A stretch of 64,000 nucleotides of DNA, taken from positions 57,023 through 121,022 of the IMG/VR virus record IMGVR_UViG_3300045988_166195; one strand, 5' to 3'. Positions within the stretch are counted from its first letter, which is position 1; every line of letters begins with the position of its first letter. A program made the translations under genes and the position numbers. The notes under the pieces were generated by a model, which saw nothing but the letters and a program-made list of their open reading frames with translations, had not been told where the DNA came from and did not search any database. The DNA comes from a virus. Below are positions 4,238-64,000 of the stretch, piece after piece.

Positions 4238-7200
4238 TTGTTTGATGATGAGCGTTTGAACGATAAGTACCCGATGCTGCGAGACTTTGCGGCTAAGCTT
4301 GCGCCGCCTGCTCGTGACATTGTGGGGCGAGAGAGCGAGAAGATCTCGCTCATGAGCTCCCTGGCTCGTCCTGAGATGTGTAACGTGATCTTGCTGGCCC
4401 CGCCTGGCACCGGTAAAGCTCACCCGAATGATGAGTTGATCCCTGTTGCCGATGAGCGTGGATATGTCCGTGTTGGTTTGCTCAAGGTGGGCGATCGTGT
4501 CTTTGATGAGCACGGTGAGCCTGTGACCGTGACGGGTGTGTTTCCTCAGGGGATCAAGCGTGAGTACGTCGTGGTGACGAACCATGGCGACCGTGTGCGC
4601 TGCAACGATGAGCACCTGTGGACGGTGCGATCGGTTGGTGATGCAGAAGGTGTGCAGCAAACGATGTCACTGCGTGAGATCATGGACGCGGGACTTATTG
4701 GTTCCGATGGCGCACCCATCTGGCAGCTTCCTGCTTCTGGTGCGCTTGTGCGACAGAGCCGTCTTCTCCCGGTTGACCCTTATGTGTGTGGTGCGCTGCT
4801 GGGCTGGGGCGTTCGCATCGATGAGCGTGGGTACGTGACCATTCCTCATGAGATGCCCGATGAAGTTTTTGTTGCTATCGAGGACCACATGGGGTGGGAG
4901 CGTGTGTATGGCAGTGGTGACAGTGTTGAGCGTTCGACGTTTATCAACCGTGCGACAGGTAAGCGTCTGACACCTGATGAGGTGATGACTCATCCGGTGA
5001 TGACGAGTGTCATCGTTAAGCCGGAGGATCAGCGTCATATTCCGTACACGTACATCACCAGCTCGGTGAAGGATCGAGAGACTGTGCTACGAGCGCTGCG
5101 AGACAGTGAGTCGTACCGTTTGTCCCAAGGGACTGCATGGGTTGTTGATGCTGATATGCATGAGCTAGAGCGTTCTCTCGATGTGACTGGCGATATGATC
5201 GCTGAGGTGATCGACACCGATCGCGAGATTGAGATGACGTGCATCATGGTCGACTCTGAGACACACCTGTATCAGGTGGGTCGAGGCCATGTTGTCACGC
5301 ACAACACGGTGCTCGTGCAGTCCTGTATGCAAGATGATCCAGAGCGTATTTACCTGGAAGTCGACATGGCAAAGATGATCGCTGACTTGTCGAACCCTGA
5401 AGAGATGGCTGCGCGCTTGAAGGCTCTGTTTGATGAGGCTGAGAGTTTTTCTAGGTCCGAAGGTCGAGAGATCGTGCTGTTCATCGACGAGTTCCACCAG
5501 GTGGTGCAGCTGTCTGCTGCTGCCGTGGAAGCGTTGAAGCCGTTGCTTGCTGCTTCTGGATCTCGGGGTATTAAGGTTATCGCTGCGACCACGTATGACG
5601 AGTTCAACGCTCATATCGCATCGAATCTGCCGCTTGTTGAGCGTCTCGCGCGCATTAACATTCCTCAGACGAATCGTGAGGTGACGATCGCCATCCTGAA
5701 GGGTATGGCGAAGAAGTACGGTGTCGATGAGGGGATCTTTGATGATGCTCTGTATGAGCAGATCTTTGAGTACACGAACAGGTACGTTCCTGCCTCTGTG
5801 CAGCCTCGTAAGTCGATCCGTGTGCTCGATGCCATGGTTGGTCGTCATCGGTATCTGGGCGAGCGTATGGACAAGACGCTGTTGGCAACCGTGCTGAAGA
5901 TTGAGTTCGGTGTTGAAGTGGAGATCGATGTCAATGCTGCTGAGATCAAGGCTGAGCTGGATAAGCGAGTGTTTAGTCAGGACTTTGCCACCACGTCGAT
6001 TGCTCGTCGACTCCAGTTGTGCGTCGCTGGTCTGAATGACCAGAGCAAGCCTATGTCATCGCTGTTGTTCACCGGAGCGACAGGTGTGGGCAAAGCCACC
6101 ACAGATTCTACTCGTGTACCAGTCTTTTCTGAGGACGGTTCTGTGGCATGGAAACTTGCTGGTGACCTTGTTGCCGGTGACTACGTGTTTGCTCGCGATG
6201 GCTCTCCGACGAAGGTACTCGGGGTGTTCCCTCAGGGGGAACGCGACGTGTATCGAGTGACAATGGGGGATGGGCGCATTCTTGATGTGTCTGACAATCA
6301 TCTGTGGGCGGTTTACCCAAATCGGCAATCGCGTGAGCAAGGTCCAACAATCTATTCGACCGAAACTCTGATGAACAAGGGTATCGTGTCGAAGTTGAAC
6401 AATGGTCGTCAGGGGATGAAGTATGTTGTTCCAATGAATAAGCCAGTTCAGTGGCCTACGGTTGATCTCCCTGTGGATCCTTACGCACTTGGAGCTTTGA
6501 TTGCCAATGGTTCGCTCACTGAGAAGGCGCTTGCCATCTCTTCGGATGATGAGGAAACGGTTGCTCGCGTTGGTCAAGCTATTGGTGCTGCGTCATGGGA
6601 TCAGAATGGTAACAATTACTCTTGGTACTTCGGTACAGGAGAGGTATGGGGCGATGACATGAAGCGACGGATTCAGCTCGCGGATGTGTTTGTCGGTTCG
6701 CTTTCTGAACTGATTGGTGTGAAGTCGCCTCAGCGATTTATCCCTGAGCAGTATCTACATTCGTCAATCGAGCAGCGATGGGCGTTGGTTCAAGGGTTGT
6801 TCGATTGCGATGGCTCGATTGGTGCGCGTGATGGTGGTCGTTACAACGTTTCGTATGCTACGGCTTCGAAGCGTTTGGCCGAGGATGTTCGCATTCTTCT
6901 GTTCTCCCTTGGGGTGCCGTGTTCCGTTAACCAGCATGTGCGCGAAAGGAACGGTAATACCCAGGTTGAGTATGAGGTTCATGTGAAGGCTCATAACTCG
7001 GATAAGCATCTCTTTTTCCGTCTCGATCGAAAGAAGAGCCTTGCCATCAAGGCTCAATCTGTGGCAAAACAGCGAGAGAAAAAGTTCGATTATGTCGGCA
7101 TTCGTTCTATCGAAAAACTCGATACGAAAGAGAGCATGACGTGTATCTACGTCGACAATGACGAGCACCTGTATCAGGCTGGTGATTTCATCGTCACGCA

Positions 7201-8011
7201 CAACACTGAGATCACTAAGCAGCTCGCAAAGATTCTTTTCGGTGACGATCAGCGTCACCTCATCCGTTTCGACATGTCGGAATGGGGCCGTGACGACAGC
7301 GTGGATCTGTTCCGTGAAGAGCTCTCGCGTCAAGTGTGGGCAACCAGCCATTGCGTGTTGCTCTTTGATGAGATCGAGAAGGCGTCCCCGCTTGTTGTGC
7401 GTTTGCTGCTTCAGGTGCTCGATGACGGTCGACTCTCGGATAAGGACGGGCGACAGGTGTCGTTCCTAAACACCTATATCGTGTTGACGACAAACGCTGG
7501 TTCGGAGATCTACCGCACCATCGGTGAGTACAACGCTGATGATCACGGTAGTGAGGCCAGCATGCGTGAGTATGAGAAGGTCATCGAAGAGTCGATCAAG
7601 AGCACCGATGGTGGTAAGTTCCCACCTGAGCTCCTGGGACGTATTGATGCGATCGTGCCGTTCCAGCCGTTGTCGCGGCCTACGTTGCGCAAGATCATGA
7701 TGAAGAAGTTGAGTGCTCTCAAGGCTGATGTGAAGCGTAAGCACGGTATCGATCTGACGATCGATAAGCGTGTTGTCGACTTTCTGGTGGAAGACGAATC
7801 GCGTAGTGACTCTGATGCTGGTGGTGCACGTGACATGGTGCGTCGCATGCAGCGTTACCTTTCGACGGAAGTCGCAGCGTTCATCAATGAACATCCCGAG
7901 GAACGTGTGATCGCAGCCAAGATCGATGGCACGTTGCGTAGCGAAGATGTGACGATCTTGAAATCTGATGCTCGTGTGGTGGTCTTGCCATACGACAAGC
8001 CACGGGCTTAG
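4238..8011 (+). CDS. ClpA/ClpB/ClpC-family double AAA+ ATPase (unfoldase) interrupted by two inteins
   Basis: D1 motifs: GRESEKISLMSSLARPEMCNVILLAPPGTGK|T (Walker A), LFIDEFH (Walker B), IKVIAATTYDEF, LVERLARINIP. D2 motifs: LLFTGATGVGK|TEITKQLAKILFG, LLFDEIEKASPLVVRLLLQVLDDGRLSDKDGRQVSFLNTYIVLTTNAG. TTG start with GGAGG RBS. The mature extein is predicted at ~670 aa. Confidence 0.85.
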   Translation: MFDDERLNDKYPMLRDFAAKLAPPARDIVGRESEKISLMSSLARPEMCNVILLAPPGTGKAHPNDELIPVADERGYVRVGLLKVGDRVFDEHGEPVTVTGVFPQGIKREYVVVTNHGDRVRCNDEHLWTVRSVGDAEGVQQTMSLREIMDAGLIGSDGAPIWQLPASGALVRQSRLLPVDPYVCGALLGWGVRIDERGYVTIPHEMPDEVFVAIEDHMGWERVYGSGDSVERSTFINRATGKRLTPDEVMTHPVMTSVIVKPEDQRHIPYTYITSSVKDRETVLRALRDSESYRLSQGTAWVVDADMHELERSLDVTGDMIAEVIDTDREIEMTCIMVDSETHLYQVGRGHVVTHNTVLVQSCMQDDPERIYLEVDMAKMIADLSNPEEMAARLKALFDEAESFSRSEGREIVLFIDEFHQVVQLSAAAVEALKPLLAASGSRGIKVIAATTYDEFNAHIASNLPLVERLARINIPQTNREVTIAILKGMAKKYGVDEGIFDDALYEQIFEYTNRYVPASVQPRKSIRVLDAMVGRHRYLGERMDKTLLATVLKIEFGVEVEIDVNAAEIKAELDKRVFSQDFATTSIARRLQLCVAGLNDQSKPMSSLLFTGATGVGKATTDSTRVPVFSEDGSVAWKLAGDLVAGDYVFARDGSPTKVLGVFPQGERDVYRVTMGDGRILDVSDNHLWAVYPNRQSREQGPTIYSTETLMNKGIVSKLNNGRQGMKYVVPMNKPVQWPTVDLPVDPYALGALIANGSLTEKALAISSDDEETVARVGQAIGAASWDQNGNNYSWYFGTGEVWGDDMKRRIQLADVFVGSLSELIGVKSPQRFIPEQYLHSSIEQRWALVQGLFDCDGSIGARDGGRYNVSYATASKRLAEDVRILLFSLGVPCSVNQHVRERNGNTQVEYEVHVKAHNSDKHLFFRLDRKKSLAIKAQSVAKQREKKFDYVGIRSIEKLDTKESMTCIYVDNDEHLYQAGDFIVTHNTEITKQLAKILFGDDQRHLIRFDMSEWGRDDSVDLFREELSRQVWATSHCVLLFDEIEKASPLVVRLLLQVLDDGRLSDKDGRQVSFLNTYIVLTTNAGSEIYRTIGEYNADDHGSEASMREYEKVIEESIKSTDGGKFPPELLGRIDAIVPFQPLSRPTLRKIMMKKLSALKADVKRKHGIDLTIDKRVVDFLVEDESRSDSDAGGARDMVRRMQRYLSTEVAAFINEHPEERVIAAKIDGTLRSEDVTILKSDARVVVLPYDKPRA
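4418..5305 (+). mobile_element. Intein 1 (296 aa) inserted in D1 P-loop between GTGK and T. Ala1, block-B Trp, block-F Cys (MTCIMVD), ...VVTHN|T: class-3 'WCT'-like intein. Possible degenerate LAGLIDADG (VDPYVCGALLGWG)
   Basis: The extein junction restores the canonical Walker A GTGKT. The C-terminal HN is followed by Thr +1. Hint-like N-terminal region DELIPVADERGYVRVGLLKVGDRVFDEHG. Confidence 0.7.
6095..7204 (+). mobile_element. Intein 2 (370 aa) inserted in D2 P-loop between GVGK and TEITK. Ala1, MTCIYVD, ...FIVTHN|T. Contains LAGLIDADG homing-endonuclease motifs (DPYALGALIANGS ... GLFDCDGSIG)
   Basis: Junction restores GATGVGKTEITKQLA (ClpB D2 consensus GPTGVGKTELAKALA). Hint block A: TTDSTRVPVFSEDGSVAWKLAGDLVAGDYVFARDG. 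Confidence 0.7.
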
Positions 8012-52428: not shown

Positions 52429-54162
52429 TTAGCTGTCCTGATCGTCATCGTCTGATGCAGATCCAGGTGAAGCCGTAGCGGTGGCTCGTAGGAGCCCTCG
52501 CGTAGAGATTGGTATGTTGTGAGGAATACCAATCTTGCACATAGAGCCTCCCGCTGGCTGAATATCCATCCACTCGTGGAGGTCATATTCAATAATCAGT
52601 GGCTCATTACCAACAATACGGTTTTGGGTACGCACAGCTGTCGACGTGACGATCCAATTGCTGCCGCCATCTGGGGTATCTTGAAGCACAAGCGTCAAAT
52701 GCTTGACGAACTTGTTGTATCCCAGAGGTGGATTCGATGGCTGGTCTTTGACCAACCACGCGCGATAGAGCGCGTAGAGGAATCGCCACGGAAGTAGATC
52801 CCAGACCATGCGATCAAGGAACTCTTCGACGAACGCACGGACGGGATCGTTCTCGATCTTGTACTGATGGAGTGCGTTTTTGACTGCGGCTGGCTCAGAC
52901 AGCTCGTAGAAGTTACTGCTGAGTACACGGTGAAGGACATATTCGAGCACCTCAGTGCGATGCATGTAGTCCTGCTTAATGTACTTGCGCTCAGCACCCG
53001 TGAAACTCTTGTTGAACGGGATGATGAGTTGCCTACGGTAAAGCGAGCCCGACTTGTCTCGAAACCTGGGTGTGTCGTTCACACATTGGACCATGAAACC
53101 CCTGAATTGGTATGCGATAGGGGTCTTGTTCTTGCGGTTGATCAAGATGACATCATTGGTGATGACAGCCTTGAGATTTGCCGCCTTATCGACGTATTCA
53201 CCGACATCGTTCTCATCGACAAGGACCGCGTTGGTCCTGATGAGAGGTTCCAGATGGAAGTCTTTACCGAAATCGGCAACGGAAATAGAAGTCCACGCAC
53301 GCTCACCGCATAGGTTACGCATGAGTGTGAGAAGCGTTCCCTTACCGTTGTTACCGACTTCGGAGAGAAGCCATGCAGTCTTGTCCCATGCAACGTTGGG
53401 TCGAATTATGGCTGACATGATTTCCCATAGGAGGTTGACGATCTCGGGATCGTCGTTGAGATCATCCATCCACGATTCGATGTCCCAGTCAGTACCGTCC
53501 GCATCGTTATGGATGACCGGGTTGACTGGGTTGTCCTTGTAGTCGATCGCAGATTTCGCGGTAAAGACGATCTCAGGGGTGAATGGCAACAGTTTCTTCG
53601 ACTTGTAATCGAAAATGCCGTTGTTGACGGCCACGAGATCGCGGTTGGTGTTGACCATGACGCGAGGGGCGTTATCTTTCAGCATATCGATAACATGGTC
53701 AAGCTCTGTAGGCGGAATTGAGTAGTTGTACGCACGGGCGAGCACTCGGATCGAGACCTCATCGGTGACGTAGATGCCTGTATCTGGACCGTGGTCCATG
53801 TACACGGCTAGTACATCATAATTGGGATCTGTGTTCTTATCTGACAGCATGATACTGACGACCCGGTTGCGATGGAGCATGCAATCGGCGATCACTGCCG
53901 GTGAGAGTGTGCTCAGTGTCTGAAAGGCTCGTTTGCCCTTGAGTTCATAGTTCGCGTTTTCTGCGATCAACCGGTTGTTGATGCGGTTGAGTAGCTGGAA
54001 CTCAACGCCTTTCGCATCAAGGACTTCTTGGTTCTGTGTAGCAAAAAACAGCTCGACCTCATCGGAGATCAGCTGGTTACGCGGTGGCAGCATAGCCTGG
54101 CGAGGCTTCGCCTGCTTCTGAGCAGGTGCGGTAGAGGTGGCATTTGTTGTCATTGAAGCCAC
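52429..54162 (-). CDS. Phage/plasmid primase-helicase C-terminal domain protein (D5 / P4-alpha-like SF3 NTPase)
   Basis: Walker A LLSEVGNNGKGTLL and Walker B VLVDENDVGE in the arrangement typical of D5_N / Primase_C-terminal (P4-type) proteins. GTG start at 54162 or ATG at 54153. Confidence 0.65.
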   Translation of the reverse strand: MASMTTNATSTAPAQKQAKPRQAMLPPRNQLISDEVELFFATQNQEVLDAKGVEFQLLNRINNRLIAENANYELKGKRAFQTLSTLSPAVIADCMLHRNRVVSIMLSDKNTDPNYDVLAVYMDHGPDTGIYVTDEVSIRVLARAYNYSIPPTELDHVIDMLKDNAPRVMVNTNRDLVAVNNGIFDYKSKKLLPFTPEIVFTAKSAIDYKDNPVNPVIHNDADGTDWDIESWMDDLNDDPEIVNLLWEIMSAIIRPNVAWDKTAWLLSEVGNNGKGTLLTLMRNLCGERAWTSISVADFGKDFHLEPLIRTNAVLVDENDVGEYVDKAANLKAVITNDVILINRKNKTPIAYQFRGFMVQCVNDTPRFRDKSGSLYRRQLIIPFNKSFTGAERKYIKQDYMHRTEVLEYVLHRVLSSNFYELSEPAAVKNALHQYKIENDPVRAFVEEFLDRMVWDLLPWRFLYALYRAWLVKDQPSNPPLGYNKFVKHLTLVLQDTPDGGSNWIVTSTAVRTQNRIVGNEPLIIEYDLHEWMDIQPAGGSMCKIGIPHNIPISTRGLLRATATASPGSASDDDDQDS

Positions 54163-54589
54163 ATCCTCGTCATGTTGGATGCGGCGTCAGTGGGGTGCAG
54201 CATGTGGGACCTTCTTTCAATTCTAAGGTGCACGAGCGGTAGGGTTCCGCGCATGTGGGATACAGGGAAGTACTCGTACGCCAGAGGAATCGTACATTAC
54301 ATTGGGTTACCGCGCAAGCTGCGCATGGCGGTCAACGACCATGTTACCGGTCGTCATCTTCTGTTGTCTCTCGACGCGCGACAGCGCGTTACCCAGAGAG
54401 ACGACAAGGGTACGGGGGTCTCTCGTGCTCCAAACGCGTCTGTGAGGCTCTGAAATGACCTCAATGCATCTGAGTGCCGGTTTTTGTCTCCCAGGGCCGT
54501 AGAGACGCGCCTGGGGGCCTTCTCGGGGATGTGGAGCCTCTTCAGCGGAGCGCATTGCTCATGAAGGGGAGTCGATGGGTGCTGTGAGA

Positions 54590-55125
54590 GGGGCCTGTAG
54601 CAGTTTTTCTTCTCGATGTAGCAGATTTCGAAAAATATCTGCTACAGGGTTTTTTGGCGGGATTTCAAGGAAAAGCTCTTATTGATAATTATTTCTAATA
54701 AATATCTGCTACATATATAATCGTTGGTATTTCAACGTAAAACCTGGTTTGTAGCAGATGTAGCAGATATTTTCCTCGCTATGCACGCATGCGCGCACAC
54801 GCACGTGTGATACCCGAAGAAGTTGTTTCTGTCAATCCTGAGAATGTATGCATTTCATATGCCGAGATGATCGCTTGACTGTGTGTTTGGATGCGTGTAT
54901 CACGCGCACATACGCGCATGCGCACCTGAAGACTTGGTGTCAAAAAGCTGCTACATCTGCTACAAGTGGCACTTTTCGTTGCAATGATGCGCGAAAGTGC
55001 CGTAGCAGCGATTTTTGGCCCTGTAGCAGTTTTTGCTACACGTGTTGTTTGCCTTGGTATTTCAAGGGAAACAGGGTCGTAGCGTGTAGCAGTTTTTGGT
55101 CCAACATCTGCTACAAGCCTTGTTT
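54590..55125. repeat. Iteron-rich origin-like region: >12 copies of (G)TAGCAG(A/T/C) / CTGCTAC(A) in both orientations, AT-rich spacer, GC-rich alternating pur/pyr palindromes
   Basis: Copies read at 54596, 54620, 54649, 54707, 54750, 54759, 54946, 54955, 55003, 55023, 55035, 55086, 55107. AT-rich 54680-54740. gcgcacatacgcgcatgcgcac at 54900-54925. Hairpin ggcacttttcg-TTGCAATGATGCGCG-cgaaagtgcc at 54967-54998. Confidence 0.6.
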
Positions 55126-55404
55126 TGTCGTGCTTGTAGTGATCGCGGCCACAGTGCTGTTTCGGTGTTGCGCGCGATGATTTACCAATATATGTTGGAG
55201 ATCACAATCGGCCTAGTTGTCTGTATACGCATTGGTGTTGCATGTGTGTTCTTGTTCGTGTATCCTGTCGTTGACAGGTTGATTCGGGTTCGTGGAAGTG
55301 AACCGAGATCTGGGACGATGTGGGACCGCACAACGTAAAACGGACGGGAGCTGGTGGGACGGCTCCCGTTCGTGTTTCTGGGGAGAGAAGTCGCATCACA
55401 ATAA

Positions 55405-55435
55405 AACAGGGGCCATCCGGTGAGGATGGCCCCTG
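55405..55435 (-). terminator. Perfect 13-bp hairpin acaggggccatcc-ggtga-ggatggcccctgt, followed on the minus strand by ttttattgt
   Basis: Rho-independent terminator geometry for the minus-strand gene ending at 55513. Confidence 0.55.
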
Positions 55436-55512
55436 TTGCTTTCATGAAAAGATCCGCTGGTAGCCGTTGCTGTCGGCTTGGGATCCGGGTCTGTGTTTAC
55501 GGTGTGACGCGA

Positions 55513-56025
55513 TCACGCTGCTGCGTGTGCGCGTGCCCACTTCGCCTGCTTCTTGGCGCGGTGCTTCGCAGGATTCCACCGTAGGGAGTGCCTGTCAGCG
55601 AGCTGCTCACGTTGAGCCTTCTGCTCCGCGAGGAACTCAGTTCGGGTGAGGCCATCGTGGTTCTGACGCTCTACCCAGAGCTTGAACTCCATAGAGTTCG
55701 TGTCCGGTAGCGCATAAACGAACTCGGCAGCGTACACGCGAGCCCTCTTCAGGAAGACGATGCGCTCGCGGATGAGCACACCGCGTCGATCGCGGATGCG
55801 GCGCTTTGTTTCGCGGTACTGCCAGTTGTCCAGCAGATCCTGCTTCGTCTCGCTGGGGAGACGGTTGTACACTACGTGACGCAGGATTGCACCAGGCGTG
55901 CCGTCGAAACCCTCGATACCTTCTCCAGGCTTCGGGGGATTCCATGACATACCAAGATCCTTGGGCAGATTCGGGATGACGATGTTCTGCTTGTTGTCGT
56001 AGATGAGTCCACGCTGAATGATCAT
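55513..56025 (-). CDS. Hypothetical 170-aa protein with basic C-terminus, adjacent to iteron region
   Basis: RBS gaaaggaggattgtcATG. Lys/Arg-rich tail (HRAKKQAKWARAHAAA). Function unknown (possible DNA-binding). Confidence 0.5.
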   Translation of the reverse strand: MIIQRGLIYDNKQNIVIPNLPKDLGMSWNPPKPGEGIEGFDGTPGAILRHVVYNRLPSETKQDLLDNWQYRETKRRIRDRRGVLIRERIVFLKRARVYAAEFVYALPDTNSMEFKLWVERQNHDGLTRTEFLAEQKAQREQLADRHSLRWNPAKHRAKKQAKWARAHAAA

Positions 56026-56966: not shown

Positions 56967-58864
56967 TACACCCTTTCTTGTTCGTCTTGATGTTCTGGTT
57001 GCTCTACCTCATGGTCGACGATTCCTTGCAGGGTGGTACGGCCTGCGAAGGTGTTGAGTCCCAACGCCACTCTGAGACGGCATATCATGTCTGCCCCGTC
57101 GACGCTGTTTTTCCGTTCAGTGAGATGGGGTGCGAGATCCGATCGGTTCCACCACAGCAGCGCAACACCTTCAGGCGTGATGAGCTTGAGGTGCTGCTTG
57201 TGGTCACCCATCGTGTGGATCGAGCACACGGACAGGTTGATGACCACATCAACAGGTGGGGCTGGGAACCCGTGCCCGAAGGGAGCGAGTTCCTTTACCT
57301 TGTCCATGTATTGCGTGATCGCACGAATCTCGTCAAGCGGCGCATCTGCATCAGGGGCTGTTCCCAGCACGAGAGCTGCTGGATCGGAATGGGTGAGGAC
57401 ACCTGTCTGTGCGATGACAGCATCACGCCGTTGTGGCACAAGGGTGGCCAGTGCGTCATAGAGTTGCTGGGGTGAGCGTGCGCGTACACCACAGGCGAAC
57501 TCGTGACCCTGCGCACCGATGGTCGGATCTTGCAACGATGTGAGCTGTTCGATGACAGGGAACCATGTGGGGGACCGCATGGAACCTGAGCACGATCCGT
57601 CCGGGTGGATGCGAACGACTGCAACGGGGTGTTCGTGCATGAGCATGAGGTTCTGAGCAATGAGGCCCAGCATGCCTGGTAGCGCATCTGTGGGGAATAC
57701 GTATGGTGCCCATGGCTGATCCGTATCCATGATGGAATCGAGGATTTCACGGACCTGGTTCTTTCTCTGTACGTTGTACTCAACGAGACGTTGCGCTGCC
57801 TCTTGTTGCTCATCAAGGGTGTCTGCCGTGAAGACTGCGAAGCCGGTCCTGTAGTCTCCGTCAACACGCCTTGTGGCGTTGAATGCCGGAGCGATCGAGA
57901 ATCCGTAGAGCTGCTCGTCGACGCGTTCATGGGTTGTGCCTAGCTCCTGTAGGAGCAGGTTCATGCCTTCGAATGCGCGCATGTACACCGGGTGGTGGTT
58001 CTGCGCGCGTAGCATGGCCAACAACGTGGGGGTCCGGTCGATGTCGATCTCAATGTCATCGAGTTCGTCAGGCTCTTCGTACTTAGACTTCACCTTCTTG
58101 TACGTGGGTCCAGGCTCGGGTGTGGCAATGAGCAGCCTGGTGAACATGAGCGCCTCGCGCACGAGGTCTCGGTTTTCGTACACAAGACTCATCACGTCAG
58201 CTACTGTTCCGATGCCTGCAAAGACTTTGAGCCACGTGATGGCAGAGAGCTTGTCGGGGTGGTAGAGCGATGCATATCGTTCCACCACTTGGTATGCCAC
58301 GTGCGCCCCACAGATTTCTCGGTTGGGGTATGCCTCGTCGATCCTGTTCGGGTTGACGAGGATATGCGCGAGAGACTTGCTCTCTTCCACGTGGTGATCG
58401 GTCACAAGGGTGATGAGACCGATGTTGTCTGCGTAGGCGAGAGCATCCCGGCTGTTGGTTCCAGCATCACAGGTGATGACAGCCTCCGTGTTGGGGAACT
58501 GCTGCTTGACTGTGTGGATGACCGATGGCTGGATCTCGTGTCCGAGGTGGTAGTCGGGGACATGAAGATTGGTGGTGAGGCCAATCTCGTTGAGTCCCGC
58601 GTAGAGAATCATGCCCGCGCAGATACCGTCTGTATCGAAGTCTGGTACGACGGTGATCTCTTTATCGGTCGATCGCATGATTTCCAGCGCCATCACCATC
58701 TGATCGATGTCCTTGAGCAAGGGATGCTGGGCATCGTTGATCTTCTTCAGGTACTGATCGGTCCACCCCATCCGTTCCCGGACACGGTTGAACAGTTCTA
58801 GGCCACTGACCTCGAACATGGATTCATCGATGTCGAGCGGGGGTGAAGTTGGTTGTGAAGCCAT
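56966..58864 (-). CDS. RecJ-like DHH/DHHA1-family phosphoesterase (ssDNA exonuclease-like)
   Basis: VVPDFDTDGICAGMIL (motif I DxD), CDAGT, LVTDHHVEE (DHH). 632 aa. RBS gaaaggagttactaccacATG. Confidence 0.65.
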   Translation of the reverse strand: MASQPTSPPLDIDESMFEVSGLELFNRVRERMGWTDQYLKKINDAQHPLLKDIDQMVMALEIMRSTDKEITVVPDFDTDGICAGMILYAGLNEIGLTTNLHVPDYHLGHEIQPSVIHTVKQQFPNTEAVITCDAGTNSRDALAYADNIGLITLVTDHHVEESKSLAHILVNPNRIDEAYPNREICGAHVAYQVVERYASLYHPDKLSAITWLKVFAGIGTVADVMSLVYENRDLVREALMFTRLLIATPEPGPTYKKVKSKYEEPDELDDIEIDIDRTPTLLAMLRAQNHHPVYMRAFEGMNLLLQELGTTHERVDEQLYGFSIAPAFNATRRVDGDYRTGFAVFTADTLDEQQEAAQRLVEYNVQRKNQVREILDSIMDTDQPWAPYVFPTDALPGMLGLIAQNLMLMHEHPVAVVRIHPDGSCSGSMRSPTWFPVIEQLTSLQDPTIGAQGHEFACGVRARSPQQLYDALATLVPQRRDAVIAQTGVLTHSDPAALVLGTAPDADAPLDEIRAITQYMDKVKELAPFGHGFPAPPVDVVINLSVCSIHTMGDHKQHLKLITPEGVALLWWNRSDLAPHLTERKNSVDGADMICRLRVALGLNTFAGRTTLQGIVDHEVEQPEHQDEQERV

Positions 58865-61343: not shown

Positions 61344-64000
61344 ATATAGATGGCTCCTGTCTGTCGTTTTTCATGGTTCTTATCTGGCCATGTATTGGCC
61401 ACGATAAGACTCTTCTCAACTGCTCGGCTCGCCAGCGGCGAGCTGATCTGTTGGAACGAAATGATTGCAGGAATCATTTTTGAAATGATTTCCATCTTTC
61501 GATGAAAAGCCCGGTGCCACCTGTGGTGGCACTCGATGTATCGGAGCATGTGGAACAGACAGCCCGAGGCAGGGGTGGGTTGTTCCACATGCAATTCAGT
61601 GATCTTTCATGATCCGAATGGTTATGCGTTTCGTGCTGAGACTTGTGAGAGTCTCAGTGGAGCGTGTTCGCGTCATGTCGGATGGGAGCCTTGTTGATTA
61701 CTGCATATCATTGTTTGTATGGGGTTGTTGTCACCCACTGTGCACTTCGTATTAGTTGCTCAGTGAGTGTGCATATCTGTTTATGGAACAGATGTTAATA
61801 ACCCCATGAATAGCGTTGATATGCGGGGTGTATCCACCCCTGTATCACCAGTCACTGTATTTCCTGTGATGGAACCTGTGGTGACTGTAGTGGCACTCGG
61901 TACAGCCTGTGGATGTGCCGTTACCGAATCCTGTTGCTTTCCATTATGTACAACTCTTACGTTTTTGGAGGTTTTGCGCGAAGCATCAAAAACGTAAGAG
62001 TTGATTGACGAGCAACAGGTGTTTCTCAGGGTCTGAGTGATGAGACCGTGAATCGTATATGTTGATGAGGCAGGTGTGATTTTATTTTGTGTCTCCCTCA
62101 GCGACATATACGACCAAGGTGGTTTACAGTCATCGACTTGTGAATTGTAGATCAGGGTCGATGATTTGTTTCCCATCGCCTTGGGACACGGGACTCATCG
62201 CGAAGACCCGATGGCACAGATGCATGAATAATGCGTCTGTGCCGTGTTTCAAGCGTCTGGAACAGACGCGCAGAGGGCACCCGAGACAGCCCCAGTGGGG
62301 CTGTGGAGGGCAAGCCTGTGAAGCGACAGCGTAACAGGCGCAGTAAGAGCCCCAAGGAGCAACGCGACGCAGGGGTGAGGTGACACCCGCAGCGTAGCGA
62401 GGACGGTCACCGAAGGGCTGTCGGCTATGCCGACCGAAGGAGTACGCGTAGCGTACGACTGAGCCAGCCCCTCTTATGCCCTTTTTTACCTGATCCACCG
62501 CCAGCGACCATTAGGGAGCGTAAGGTGGGCAAAGTGGCGCAACGAAGGGGAAAACAGGCGATACCACCCCCGGTGGGACCACGGGTCGTTGAGGCGGTAC
62601 CGCCTCCGAGACGTGGTACCACGTGTGCCTGTTTTCCCTGTTAAGACGGGGTTTAGGTGAGACCATGGTCCGAGCTTGCTTGGCACCGTGGTCTCACCAT
62701 GCGGCACAGCCGCTGTAACAGAGTGACGAACCGAGCGAGCGCAGGTTTGGCACACTGTTGTGACCCCCGCCTTGCCGGGTCGTGAAACGGCCCGTCAGCG
62801 CCGTTAAGGAGCACAGTGTAGCTGGGCTCCGTTGACACTCTGTAAGGCCCTGAGACAGGCTGTTCTGGCCCGTTATCGGGACAAGACAGACTGGTTCAGG
62901 GCCGTTTGTTTCTGTGCTCTTCAGACATTGAGACAGCAGCTGTTGCAGCAGCTGCTGGGGAGTACACCAGATGGCGTGGCATCTGGTGTCTGAGAACGCT
63001 GTTTCAATACCTGTTGGAAGAGCGCAGAAACATGTTGGCGAAGCCCCCATTAACAGTCCACCGGATAACGCGCAGCATCCTGCCTCACGTGCAATGAAGC
63101 ATGTGAGGCAGGATGTTTTAGAGCGCTTATATTGAGTTATCCGGTGGCATATTCTAGCCACATGCAACAGGGCTATAACAGCCTTTTTATAGAGCCCTGT
63201 TACATGTGTGAATACCATGTTGTTACGCAGTTGTTGTATGGCTGTTTATTCCCCATCTGAGACTATCTCTTTTTTGAGTGTGTCTCAGATGGGGGTACAA
63301 CAGATAAAACAGAACGTGAATCACCACATGTGACAGCCTGTTTATAAACAGCTGCGTAGCAGCGTTGTAGATGTGGTGTGCGGCAGCGTTGTATCTGCTG
63401 TTTCGCCTAGAGGCTGAGAACCCATTTATCTGTGCCTCGTATCAATGCCCTGAGACAGCCTAGTAACAGCCTAGTGACATGCGTCCGTATCACGGTTGTT
63501 GCCATCGATCGATACAGCCTAAATAAACGTCGTGATGCATGGTTATGAGGCCCTTGCTGTTCCTTTAGACCCGGTTGATGACTGCGTGAATGCAGAGCTG
63601 CAACCGGGGCTGTGGTGCAGCATGGCTGCGTATCTGGTTGCGTCGATGCGTCTGTAGCAGGCGCAATGGTGACCGGATAATGGCCAATGAAAGACCAATA
63701 AGTGGTCAATGGTGACCAGTTTGGAGCCAGTTAAGCACCAGAGACAGTAGCAGGTCTTTATCTGGTCCAATGATGGCCATATAAAGGCGCTTTGTTGGCC
63801 GTACTATGGCCAGTGGTACCCCATGGTCGTTATCGGGTTCTTTGTTGGCCTTATAACGGTCCATTATTAGACCATGTAAGAGCCAGGTGACAGCCTGGAT
63901 CAATGATGGGCCAATAATGGCGCTTTGTTGGGCTTATGTATGGCGCAATGGTGGCCACAGTATGGCGTTTTCCGGGTCAGGAAAAGCCTGGTAGATGATG
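61344..64000. repeat. 2.6-kb non-coding, repeat- and palindrome-dense region (candidate oriT / partition site / structured RNA locus)
   Basis: See findings. ACAGCCT(A/G) x7. CAATG(G/A)TG(G/A)CC x5 in 63660-63960. TTTGTTGGCC x3. Nested hairpin 63061-63146. 15-bp IR actcttacgtttttg/caaaaacgtaagagt at 61955-62003. 14-bp palindrome ctgtttataaacag at 63349-63362. No convincing ORF. Confidence 0.6.

Follow-up and report, generated by a model that had tools for sequence, protein, structure and literature searches.

Within a 64,000-nucleotide stretch of an uncultivated phage genome (IMG/VR virus record IMGVR_UViG_3300045988_166195, positions 57,023 to 121,022; hereafter the window, to which all coordinates refer), we describe an array of short repeated sites, TGTAGCAG, that is probably the replication origin of the phage and would be bound by the initiator-helicase of superfamily 3 (SF3) encoded by an adjacent D5-like gene. 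An origin of short repeated sites beside a D5-like helicase had been proposed from the sequence alone, and this core of the original prediction is borne out insofar as the array is conserved, its word follows the helicase lineage and the same word recurs after D5-like helicases elsewhere, while a 170-aa initiator, a promoter-like loop motif and a signal in the GC skew had to be given up. The accompanying label "iteron-type" is apt in the sense of the Staphylococcus aureus pathogenicity islands (SaPIs) and P4, i.e. for short sites in both orientations with an SF3 initiator-helicase, and not in that of plasmid Rep proteins, whose repeats are tandem, direct and 17-22 bp long. An origin beside such a helicase is what a specialist would expect; what is unusual about this otherwise familiar kind of origin is its central part.

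The array of short sites and its conservation

Counted on both strands, GTAGCAG occurs 17 times in the window as compared to ~4.6 copies expected per 64 kb, a number reached in none of 100 dinucleotide-preserving shuffles. Twelve copies fall within 54597-55114 and five in the other 63.5 kb; a similar density of the 8-mer elsewhere, which the original prediction had named as grounds for its refutation, was not found within the window. Clusters of this kind are rare, as just one other 7-mer in the window attains seven copies per 600 bp. The claim of at least 13 copies of GTAGCAG(A/T) is accurate when degenerate copies are counted and too high for exact sites: the strict 8-mer is matched by 10 of the 12 exact sites, the remaining two reading GTAGCAGC, and the degenerate copies TTGCTACA (55033-55040) and CGTAGCGT (55078-55085) bring the total to ~14. 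Alignment of the copies yields the extended site T-GTAGCAG-W-T-n-T-T (W = A/T; ~13 bp with flanks). Centre to centre, the sites are spaced by 21, 21, 67, 45, 9, 188, 9, 45, 21, 63 and 22 bp, which amounts to inverted pairs two helical turns apart, tandem pairs with a 9-bp period (the two adjacent pairs of the original prediction) and an overall dyad of 45-9-188-9-45 centred near 54857. The array is housed in a 1.35-kb gap (54163-55512) without credible genes. Its sites and the gene of the proposed initiator are as follows.

54596..55115, both strands: whole array of 12 exact TGTAGCAG sites and 2 degenerate ones, with dyad symmetry about ~54857
54596..54603, plus strand: site TGTAGCAG, 99% column identity in 12 relatives
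54617..54624, plus strand: site TGTAGCAG, inverted with respect to 54639-46, the pair spanning 30 bp with 21 bp between centres
54639..54646, minus strand: site CTGCTACA (plus-strand reading), 100% conserved
54706..54713, minus strand: site CTGCTACA, within the AT-rich patch, 100% conserved
54750..54766, plus strand: tandem pair TGTAGCAGATGTAGCAG with a 9-bp period, forming the left arm of the dyad core
54948..54964, minus strand: tandem pair CTGCTACATCTGCTACA, forming the right arm of the dyad core at 188 bp from its left counterpart; GCTACA alone is invariant in relatives
55001..55008, plus strand: site CGTAGCAG
55022..55040: site TGTAGCAG and inverted half-site TTGCTACA, a 19-bp palindrome
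55078..55092, plus strand: degenerate CGTAGCGT, then site TGTAGCAG
55108..55115, minus strand: site CTGCTACA, paired in inverted orientation with 55085-92 (22 bp between centres)
52429..54162, minus strand: D5-like SF3 helicase gene, proposed initiator; Pfam DUF5906, Pox_D5 and D5_N; PDB 7OLA PriRep5, E=1.4e-56

The site cluster is retained, at the same position, in all 21 IMG/VR contigs (67-126 kb) whose helicases are 81-100% identical to that of the window. In an alignment of 12 relatives, site columns are 91% identical versus 78% for non-site columns, and the site cores of the left arm reach 95-100%. Since relatives differ by 10-nt and 7-9-nt indels within the only overlapping open reading frames (ORFs), the array region is non-coding. 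Searches of the region with Rfam (E<=1) and a tRNA scan returned nothing relevant, and a distant-mode search with 54300-55500 found no similar DNA in cultured phages, among which the nearest protein relatives of the helicase are 30-37% identical. The phage family is without a cultured relative in the phage collection searched; its genomes measure ~105-126 kb, and public metagenomes contain well over a hundred contigs with the helicase gene.

Another strongly conserved segment (54430-54562; 89% column identity), GC-rich and with a 23-nt imperfect inverted repeat (54430-54452 / 54492-54514), lies in the 430-nt leader that separates the array from the helicase gene. An 82-aa ORF overlapping this segment gave no family match.

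The repeat word across helicase lineages and unrelated elements

The proposed initiator is a protein of 577 aa, upstream of whose start the array lies at a distance of ~430 bp. It matches one solved structure, PriRep5 of SaPI5 (7OLA), in an alignment that spans the N-terminal tier and the ATPase and extends into the C-terminal domain, up to residue 491. This C-terminal domain carries a predicted winged-helix region, with a helix pattern common to other D5-like helicases. A homologue search returned relatives of 81-95% identity only. Along the helicase, the ATPase core is conserved and residues 1-160 and 481-577 are most divergent.

More distant relatives of the helicase lack TGTAGCAG and have their own most-clustered 7-mer directly upstream of the helicase gene (in contig L025, the cluster is directly downstream instead):

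L022: helicase identity 53%, clustered word TGTGGCA, 11 copies
L023: helicase identity 46%, clustered word TGTACCA, 7 copies
L026: helicase identity 39%, clustered word GTATTCC, 7 copies

In L022, even the geometry of the inverted pairs is retained, TGTGGCA-tttttaattttgaaaa-TGCCACA corresponding to TGTAGCAG-atttcgaaaaatat-CTGCTACA in the window. Aligned to the winged-helix helices of PriRep5, the putative recognition helix reads GYNKF(V/I)KHLTL in five of six helicases compared from the TGTAGCAG group (window, L003, L006, L012 and L015) and SNKFIKHFTL in the sixth (L018); the same segment differs in L022, L023 and L026. By these alignments, the site sequence is specific to the helicase lineage, and the putative recognition helix changes in parallel.

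Besides, the word was found next to D5-like helicases that are only distantly related to this one. Public collections were scanned for two patterns, the tandem pair and the dyad GTAGCAG-NN-GTAGCAG-N35-65-CTGCTAC-NN-CTGCTAC, with coding repeats discarded and helicases recognised by a D5-like profile. The tandem pair or dyad lies 0-110 bp past the stop codon of a D5-like helicase in L039, L047, L056, L072, L109 and L133, and the dyad lies within 60 bp of the stop in ~10 of 12 metagenome loci with a visible helicase ORF. In all, ~16 unrelated elements carry the TGTAGCAG dyad no more than ~110 bp after the helicase stop, which is the SaPI layout, while L197 has it 440 bp upstream of the helicase, as in the window. 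The dyad spacers of these minimal elements measure 40-65 bp and are commonly AT-rich (up to 83%), and contigs with TGTAGCAG dyads range from 40 to 69% GC. In the phage contigs L078/L089 and L066/L115, larger arrays of this type have an AT-rich centre with multiple forward sites before it and multiple reverse sites after it. The helicases of the minimal elements may share their DNA specificity with that of the window; a C-terminal domain in common with it was not recognisable in their sequences.

A 17-mer scan of viral contigs yielded at least 119 loci, many of which are coding repeats and were set aside. In L064, L065, L084, L102, L121, L123 and other viral loci, many exact matches to TGTAGCAGATGTAGCAG lie on the same strand at multiple-of-3 spacings, as expected of coding low-complexity repeats, which constitute a trap for motif-only searches. 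There are also, in chromosomal DNA of bacterial MAG and metagenome contigs, intergenic palindromic elements of the form tGTAGCAGatGTAGCAG-N45-55-CTGCTACatCTGCTACa without a helicase (L040, L041/L042/L203, L044, L045/L037, L048, L175 and L190), whose neighbouring genes include LicD, SpoIIE, EF-G, UPF0029 and an ABC permease. The same spacer sequence is present at different loci in L044 and L045, which suggests mobility.

The dyad centre, neighbouring genes and GC skew

Further elements lie between and around the sites:

54675..54745: AT-rich patch, candidate DNA-unwinding element, 73-83% AT
54657..54674, plus strand: box B copy 1, GGCGGGATTTCAAGGAAAA, a second repeated motif
54724..54741, plus strand: box B copy 2, TTGGTATTTCAACGTAAA, near-palindrome
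55054..55071, plus strand: box B copy 3, TTGGTATTTCAAGGGAAA
54780..54809: left perfect alternating purine/pyrimidine tract, 30 nt, Z-DNA-prone
54901..54925: right perfect alternating purine/pyrimidine tract, 25 nt, inverted partner of the left tract
54807..54835, minus strand: promoter-like unit TTGACA-N16-GTATCAC, leftward toward the helicase gene, hexamers 100% conserved
54875..54903, plus strand: promoter-like unit TTGACT-N16-GTATCAC, rightward, with 74% identity to the promoter of a small-RNA candidate nearby
54966..55000: conserved hairpin/palindrome that separates the right tandem pair from the following site

The AT-rich spacer, the Z-DNA-like alternating stretches and the hairpin of the original prediction are thus present. 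The AT-rich patch (73-83% AT at 54680-54739, in a genome of 54% GC) has sites on both sides and one inside, while the convergent tandem pairs (54750-66 / 54948-64) enclose the 188-bp spacer, which is ~50% AT. At 30 and 25 nt, the alternating runs exceed all others in the window (third in length is a run of 17 nt; the shuffle maximum was 19); they differ in sequence between two subgroups of relatives, yet remain alternating. Box B (TTGGTATTTCAA) is present in 2-3 copies in the array. No DnaA box was found in the array region at up to one mismatch. The hairpin is conserved, with no clean compensatory changes seen among relatives, and the promoter-like motif TTGCAATGATGCGCG that had been noticed in its loop turned out to be a single occurrence with near-matches at chance level. 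As a sigma-54 site (TGGCAC-N6-TTGCA), the loop has the wrong spacing, and its GG is lost in more divergent relatives.

The back-to-back TTGAC(A/T)-N16-GTATCAC combination at the dyad centre has no second occurrence in the window and is invariant or nearly so in relatives. Compared with sigma-70 promoters, the -35 hexamers (TTGACA/TTGACT) and the 17-bp spacing fit perfectly; the -10 element is TATCAC, and the missing final T explains why a consensus promoter scan rejected both units. They are probably real promoters, and the leftward one is the sole promoter candidate found upstream of the helicase operon. The adjacent small-RNA candidate (~105 nt; 55238-55380, plus strand) has a promoter of its own, TTGCAT-N17-TATCCT, with TATGAT, TATACT or TATGCT as the -10 in relatives. 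Its body (CAGGTTGATTCGGGTTCGTGG ... GGGACGATGTGGGACCGCACA) is strongly conserved without an Rfam match and is followed by an intrinsic terminator (55343-55376), one stem pair of which is G-U, G-C or A-U across relatives.

On the 3' side of the helicase gene, the minus strand continues with a 209-aa ORF and a 1072-aa protein matching a DNA polymerase PHROG; beyond the gap on the upstream side lie a 170-aa ORF, a CAAX-type protease and RecJ. The 170-aa gene (55513-56025) had been thought to read into the array and to encode its initiator. It ends, in fact, with a strong intrinsic terminator (55437-55405) ~290 bp before the nearest site. Its product matched nothing in sequence searches of Pfam, PHROG and PDB; an AlphaFold model (pLDDT 80.8) had no PDB match better than E=0.1 in Foldseek; and its homologues number only 15, all within this phage family, distant relatives with the same architecture lacking it. 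No Rep-family domain was found among the neighbour proteins scanned. Because the 170-aa and 209-aa neighbours are both confined to the close family, the helicase, the sole neighbour common to all lineages, is the only protein that travels with such arrays, and it rather than the 170-aa protein is likely to be the initiator. Directly upstream of the helicase gene, a 17-codon ORF (54150-54203, minus strand) with a good ribosome-binding site, GAAAGAAGG, has a stop codon that overlaps a helicase ATG at 54153 (ATGA), which suggests translational coupling and points to this ATG, not the GTG at 54162, as the start of the helicase.

A GC-skew check, run here on the 64-kb window, revealed no switch: skew is positive in 64 of 64 one-kb bins (0.05-0.22) and on either side of the array (+0.107 at 54-55 kb, +0.110 at 55-56 kb). 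A dominant bidirectional origin at 54.8 kb is hence not supported, and replication from the array, if any, should be unidirectional. Genes lie on the plus strand up to ~26.5 kb and on the minus strand from ~27 kb; as the skew stays positive throughout despite this flip, the strand asymmetry is not tied to transcription, which suggests one-way replication. If replication proceeded one way toward higher coordinates, no switch would be left anywhere, and this is compatible with an origin at the array.

Toward the right end of the window, there is a second repeat-rich non-coding stretch (62700-64000) with CAATGGTGACC / ATGGCCA units at 63664-63981 and ACAGCCT units. It also includes three plus-strand GTAGCAG copies (63356, 63654 and 63747) that are partly conserved in four relatives. 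This trio (63.36-63.75 kb) may be a candidate for a second cis site like crr of P4, its conservation being only partial. Several related contigs end at the equivalent of ~62.4-66.9 kb, so that the stretch may be a genome end or packaging region.

Origin function weighed against alternatives

The closest known counterparts are the SaPIs, whose Reps are replicative helicases as well as initiators and recognise iterons of 5-6 nt through a winged-helix domain in the C-terminal domain (PMC9371898). Their 6-12 iterons lie right after rep around an AT-rich centre, at least two per side in opposite orientation, and gel shifts showed binding of PriRep5 to the DNA of its own origin (PMC9371898). The phage array resembles this arrangement in its homologous SF3 helicase (E=1.4e-56) with a predicted C-terminal winged-helix region, in its 12-14 short sites in both orientations, in an AT-rich patch with sites on either side and in the lineage-specific site sequence. 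It departs from it in that the sites are 8 bp long, that the array extends over ~520 bp located ~430 bp upstream of the helicase gene instead of directly downstream, that the 188-bp centre is not AT-rich and holds promoter-like units and alternating tracts, and that the host element is a phage of ~105-126 kb rather than a 15-kb satellite.

In P4, the alpha protein recognises octamers, the type I repeats TGTTCACC, which occur in both orientations in ori and also in the second cis site crr. Alpha has the same helicase-plus-winged-helix organisation (PMC2777425). Unlike in P4, the primase is not fused to the helicase here, and a second cis site is at most a candidate. Set against SaPI and P4 origins together, the array is not located downstream of rep, and its AT-rich centre is present in part. 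Farther afield, SV40 large T antigen and papillomavirus E1 are SF3 self-initiators whose short sites form dyad-symmetric arrays with an AT tract and promoters alongside; these proteins have a different origin-binding domain and the viral cores are far more compact (~64 bp), so that the likeness is one of analogy only. Streptococcus phages (including those of S. thermophilus) account for 371 of 614 cultured-phage relatives of the helicase, in the form of primase/helicase proteins with 30-37% identity. The ori of the Sfi21 type from S. thermophilus phages is a non-coding 302-bp origin element of the replication module, known as the "PER" resistance element (PMC6356513). Its sequence is unrelated to the array, and Sfi21 itself is not among the matches listed. 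Iteron plasmids of the Rep_3/RepA kind (pPS10, RK2, F, P1 oriR) also have repeated initiator sites beside an AT-rich region and an initiator that, as here, is probably autoregulatory. However, theirs are tandem direct repeats of 17-22 bp, served by a dedicated Rep and dependent on DnaA boxes and a host helicase, whereas the phage has 8-bp sites in both orientations, no DnaA box and a helicase as the proposed initiator. The array is not a plasmid-type iteron origin.

On the other hand, several observations weigh against an origin function. The array lies upstream of the helicase start, while in SaPIs and the minimal elements it is directly downstream; the spacer enclosed by its main tandem pairs measures 188 bp and is not AT-rich, as opposed to 40-65 bp in the minimal elements; and its position is not marked by the GC skew. 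The helicases of the minimal elements are only ~20-25% identical to that of the window, with C-terminal domains that are not recognisably closer. Nor is the word linked exclusively to helicases, as indicated by terminase-side clusters and helicase-less dyads: in the unrelated prophage-like contigs L113 and L035, a GTAGCAG cluster (7066-7345) ends 24 bp before an Sf6-type small terminase gene, with tandem pairs that point away from each other, and a six-site cluster (1151-1511) precedes HTH, DUF1441 and TerL gpA genes, respectively. Moreover, ~10 of the helicase-less dyads, 85 bp long, lie beside housekeeping genes in Clostridiales/Ruminococcus chromosomal contigs.

Could the TGTAGCAG sites serve transcription alone, as operators of a phage regulator over the two promoters and the helicase/polymerase operon? 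The two invariant promoter-like units at the dyad centre, their resemblance to the promoter of the adjacent conserved small-RNA candidate, the tandem pairs ~35-50 bp downstream of each presumed start and the lack of any other sigma-70-like promoter found upstream of the helicase gene would fit such a role. Yet the sites span 520 bp, well past the promoters, and in ~16 unrelated elements the word trails the 3' end of a helicase gene, where no promoter would need control. The AT-rich spacers of most minimal dyads are origin-like, and the repeat word varies with the helicase lineage. We consider purely transcriptional control rather unlikely, and since autoregulation and origin function usually coexist in iteron systems, it overlaps with the origin we propose. 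A packaging site of the pac/cos type, bound by the small terminase subunit, would be consistent with the terminase-side clusters in L113 and L035, with L109, where helicase and terminase genes have the cluster between them, overlapping the helicase stop codon and 520 bp from terS, and with the related contigs that end 8-12 kb to the right of the array (an approximate distance, from coordinates). A boundary between the replication and packaging modules explains these terminase-side layouts, however, for L109 and L113 as well as a packaging role does. No terminase-like gene is adjacent in the window, the neighbours being the helicase and the 170-aa ORFan, for whose model no solved structure, of a terminase subunit or otherwise, gave a match. 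As the word again co-varies with the helicase lineage, we give packaging little credence.

Type II and type III centromeres typically consist of short repeats that cluster, in either orientation, around a promoter, and on such general grounds the array could pass for a partition centromere (parS/parC-like) or another nucleoprotein scaffold for plasmid-prophage maintenance. Genes of the ParA, ParB, ParM, ParR and TubZ types were not seen among the neighbours scanned, though, and a centromere would leave the link to helicases across lineages unexplained, which makes this highly improbable. Hardly more credible is a structured non-coding RNA in which the inverted words form stems. Folding z-scores are indeed low (-4.8 for DNA, 54740-54975; -5.6 for RNA, 54905-55385), but inverted copies of one word yield low energies automatically, tandem direct copies and same-orientation copies are unable to pair with each other, and Rfam gave no match. 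Instead of co-varying, the word cores stay invariant, and in L022 and L023 all copies switch in concert to another word.

For the replication origin that we favour, homology and the comparative data allow a course of events to be sketched. The helicase would bind the TGTAGCAG sites via the winged-helix part of its C-terminal domain, and the inverted pairs (two turns), the tandem pairs (9 bp) and the symmetry about ~54857 could allow oligomers to assemble on both arms. Melting would most likely begin in the 70-bp AT-rich patch of the left arm, where helicase rings may load themselves on the single strands before the phage primase and family-B polymerase take over. Each central promoter-like unit leads into a Z-DNA-prone tract and then a tandem site pair, which suggests that transcription may be coupled to firing. 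The leftward unit would drive the helicase operon, and initiator bound to the tandem pair just downstream may repress its own gene, as in other iteron systems. Net fork movement would be in one direction, toward higher coordinates.

What merits following up is the reuse of one 8-bp word across phyla, the helicase-less chromosomal copies and the promoter/Z-tract centre of the dyad. As a long shot, the TGTAGCAG dyad might be a portable origin cassette that serves at least two deeply divergent SF3 helicase lineages across bacterial phyla, with the chromosomal 85-bp copies as functional origin-only elements and the phage dyad centre tying firing to transcription-driven supercoiling. If so, incoming phage or satellite helicases might fire the chromosomal dyads and thereby amplify host DNA, or these dyads might instead titrate the helicase, in analogy to PER-type phage resistance, and the divergent promoters reading into Z-DNA-prone tracts would make firing depend on the supercoiling that transcription generates. 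Helicase-less chromosomal dyads, should they be functional, would be a more interesting finding than the origin itself. Either way, the array provides an uncultivated phage family with a concrete, testable origin and initiator. A lineage-specific repeat word beside D5-like helicase genes could serve as a computational marker for SF3-helicase origins in metagenomic phages and satellites, and a word that changes together with the putative recognition helix offers material for studying how self-loading helicases read DNA.

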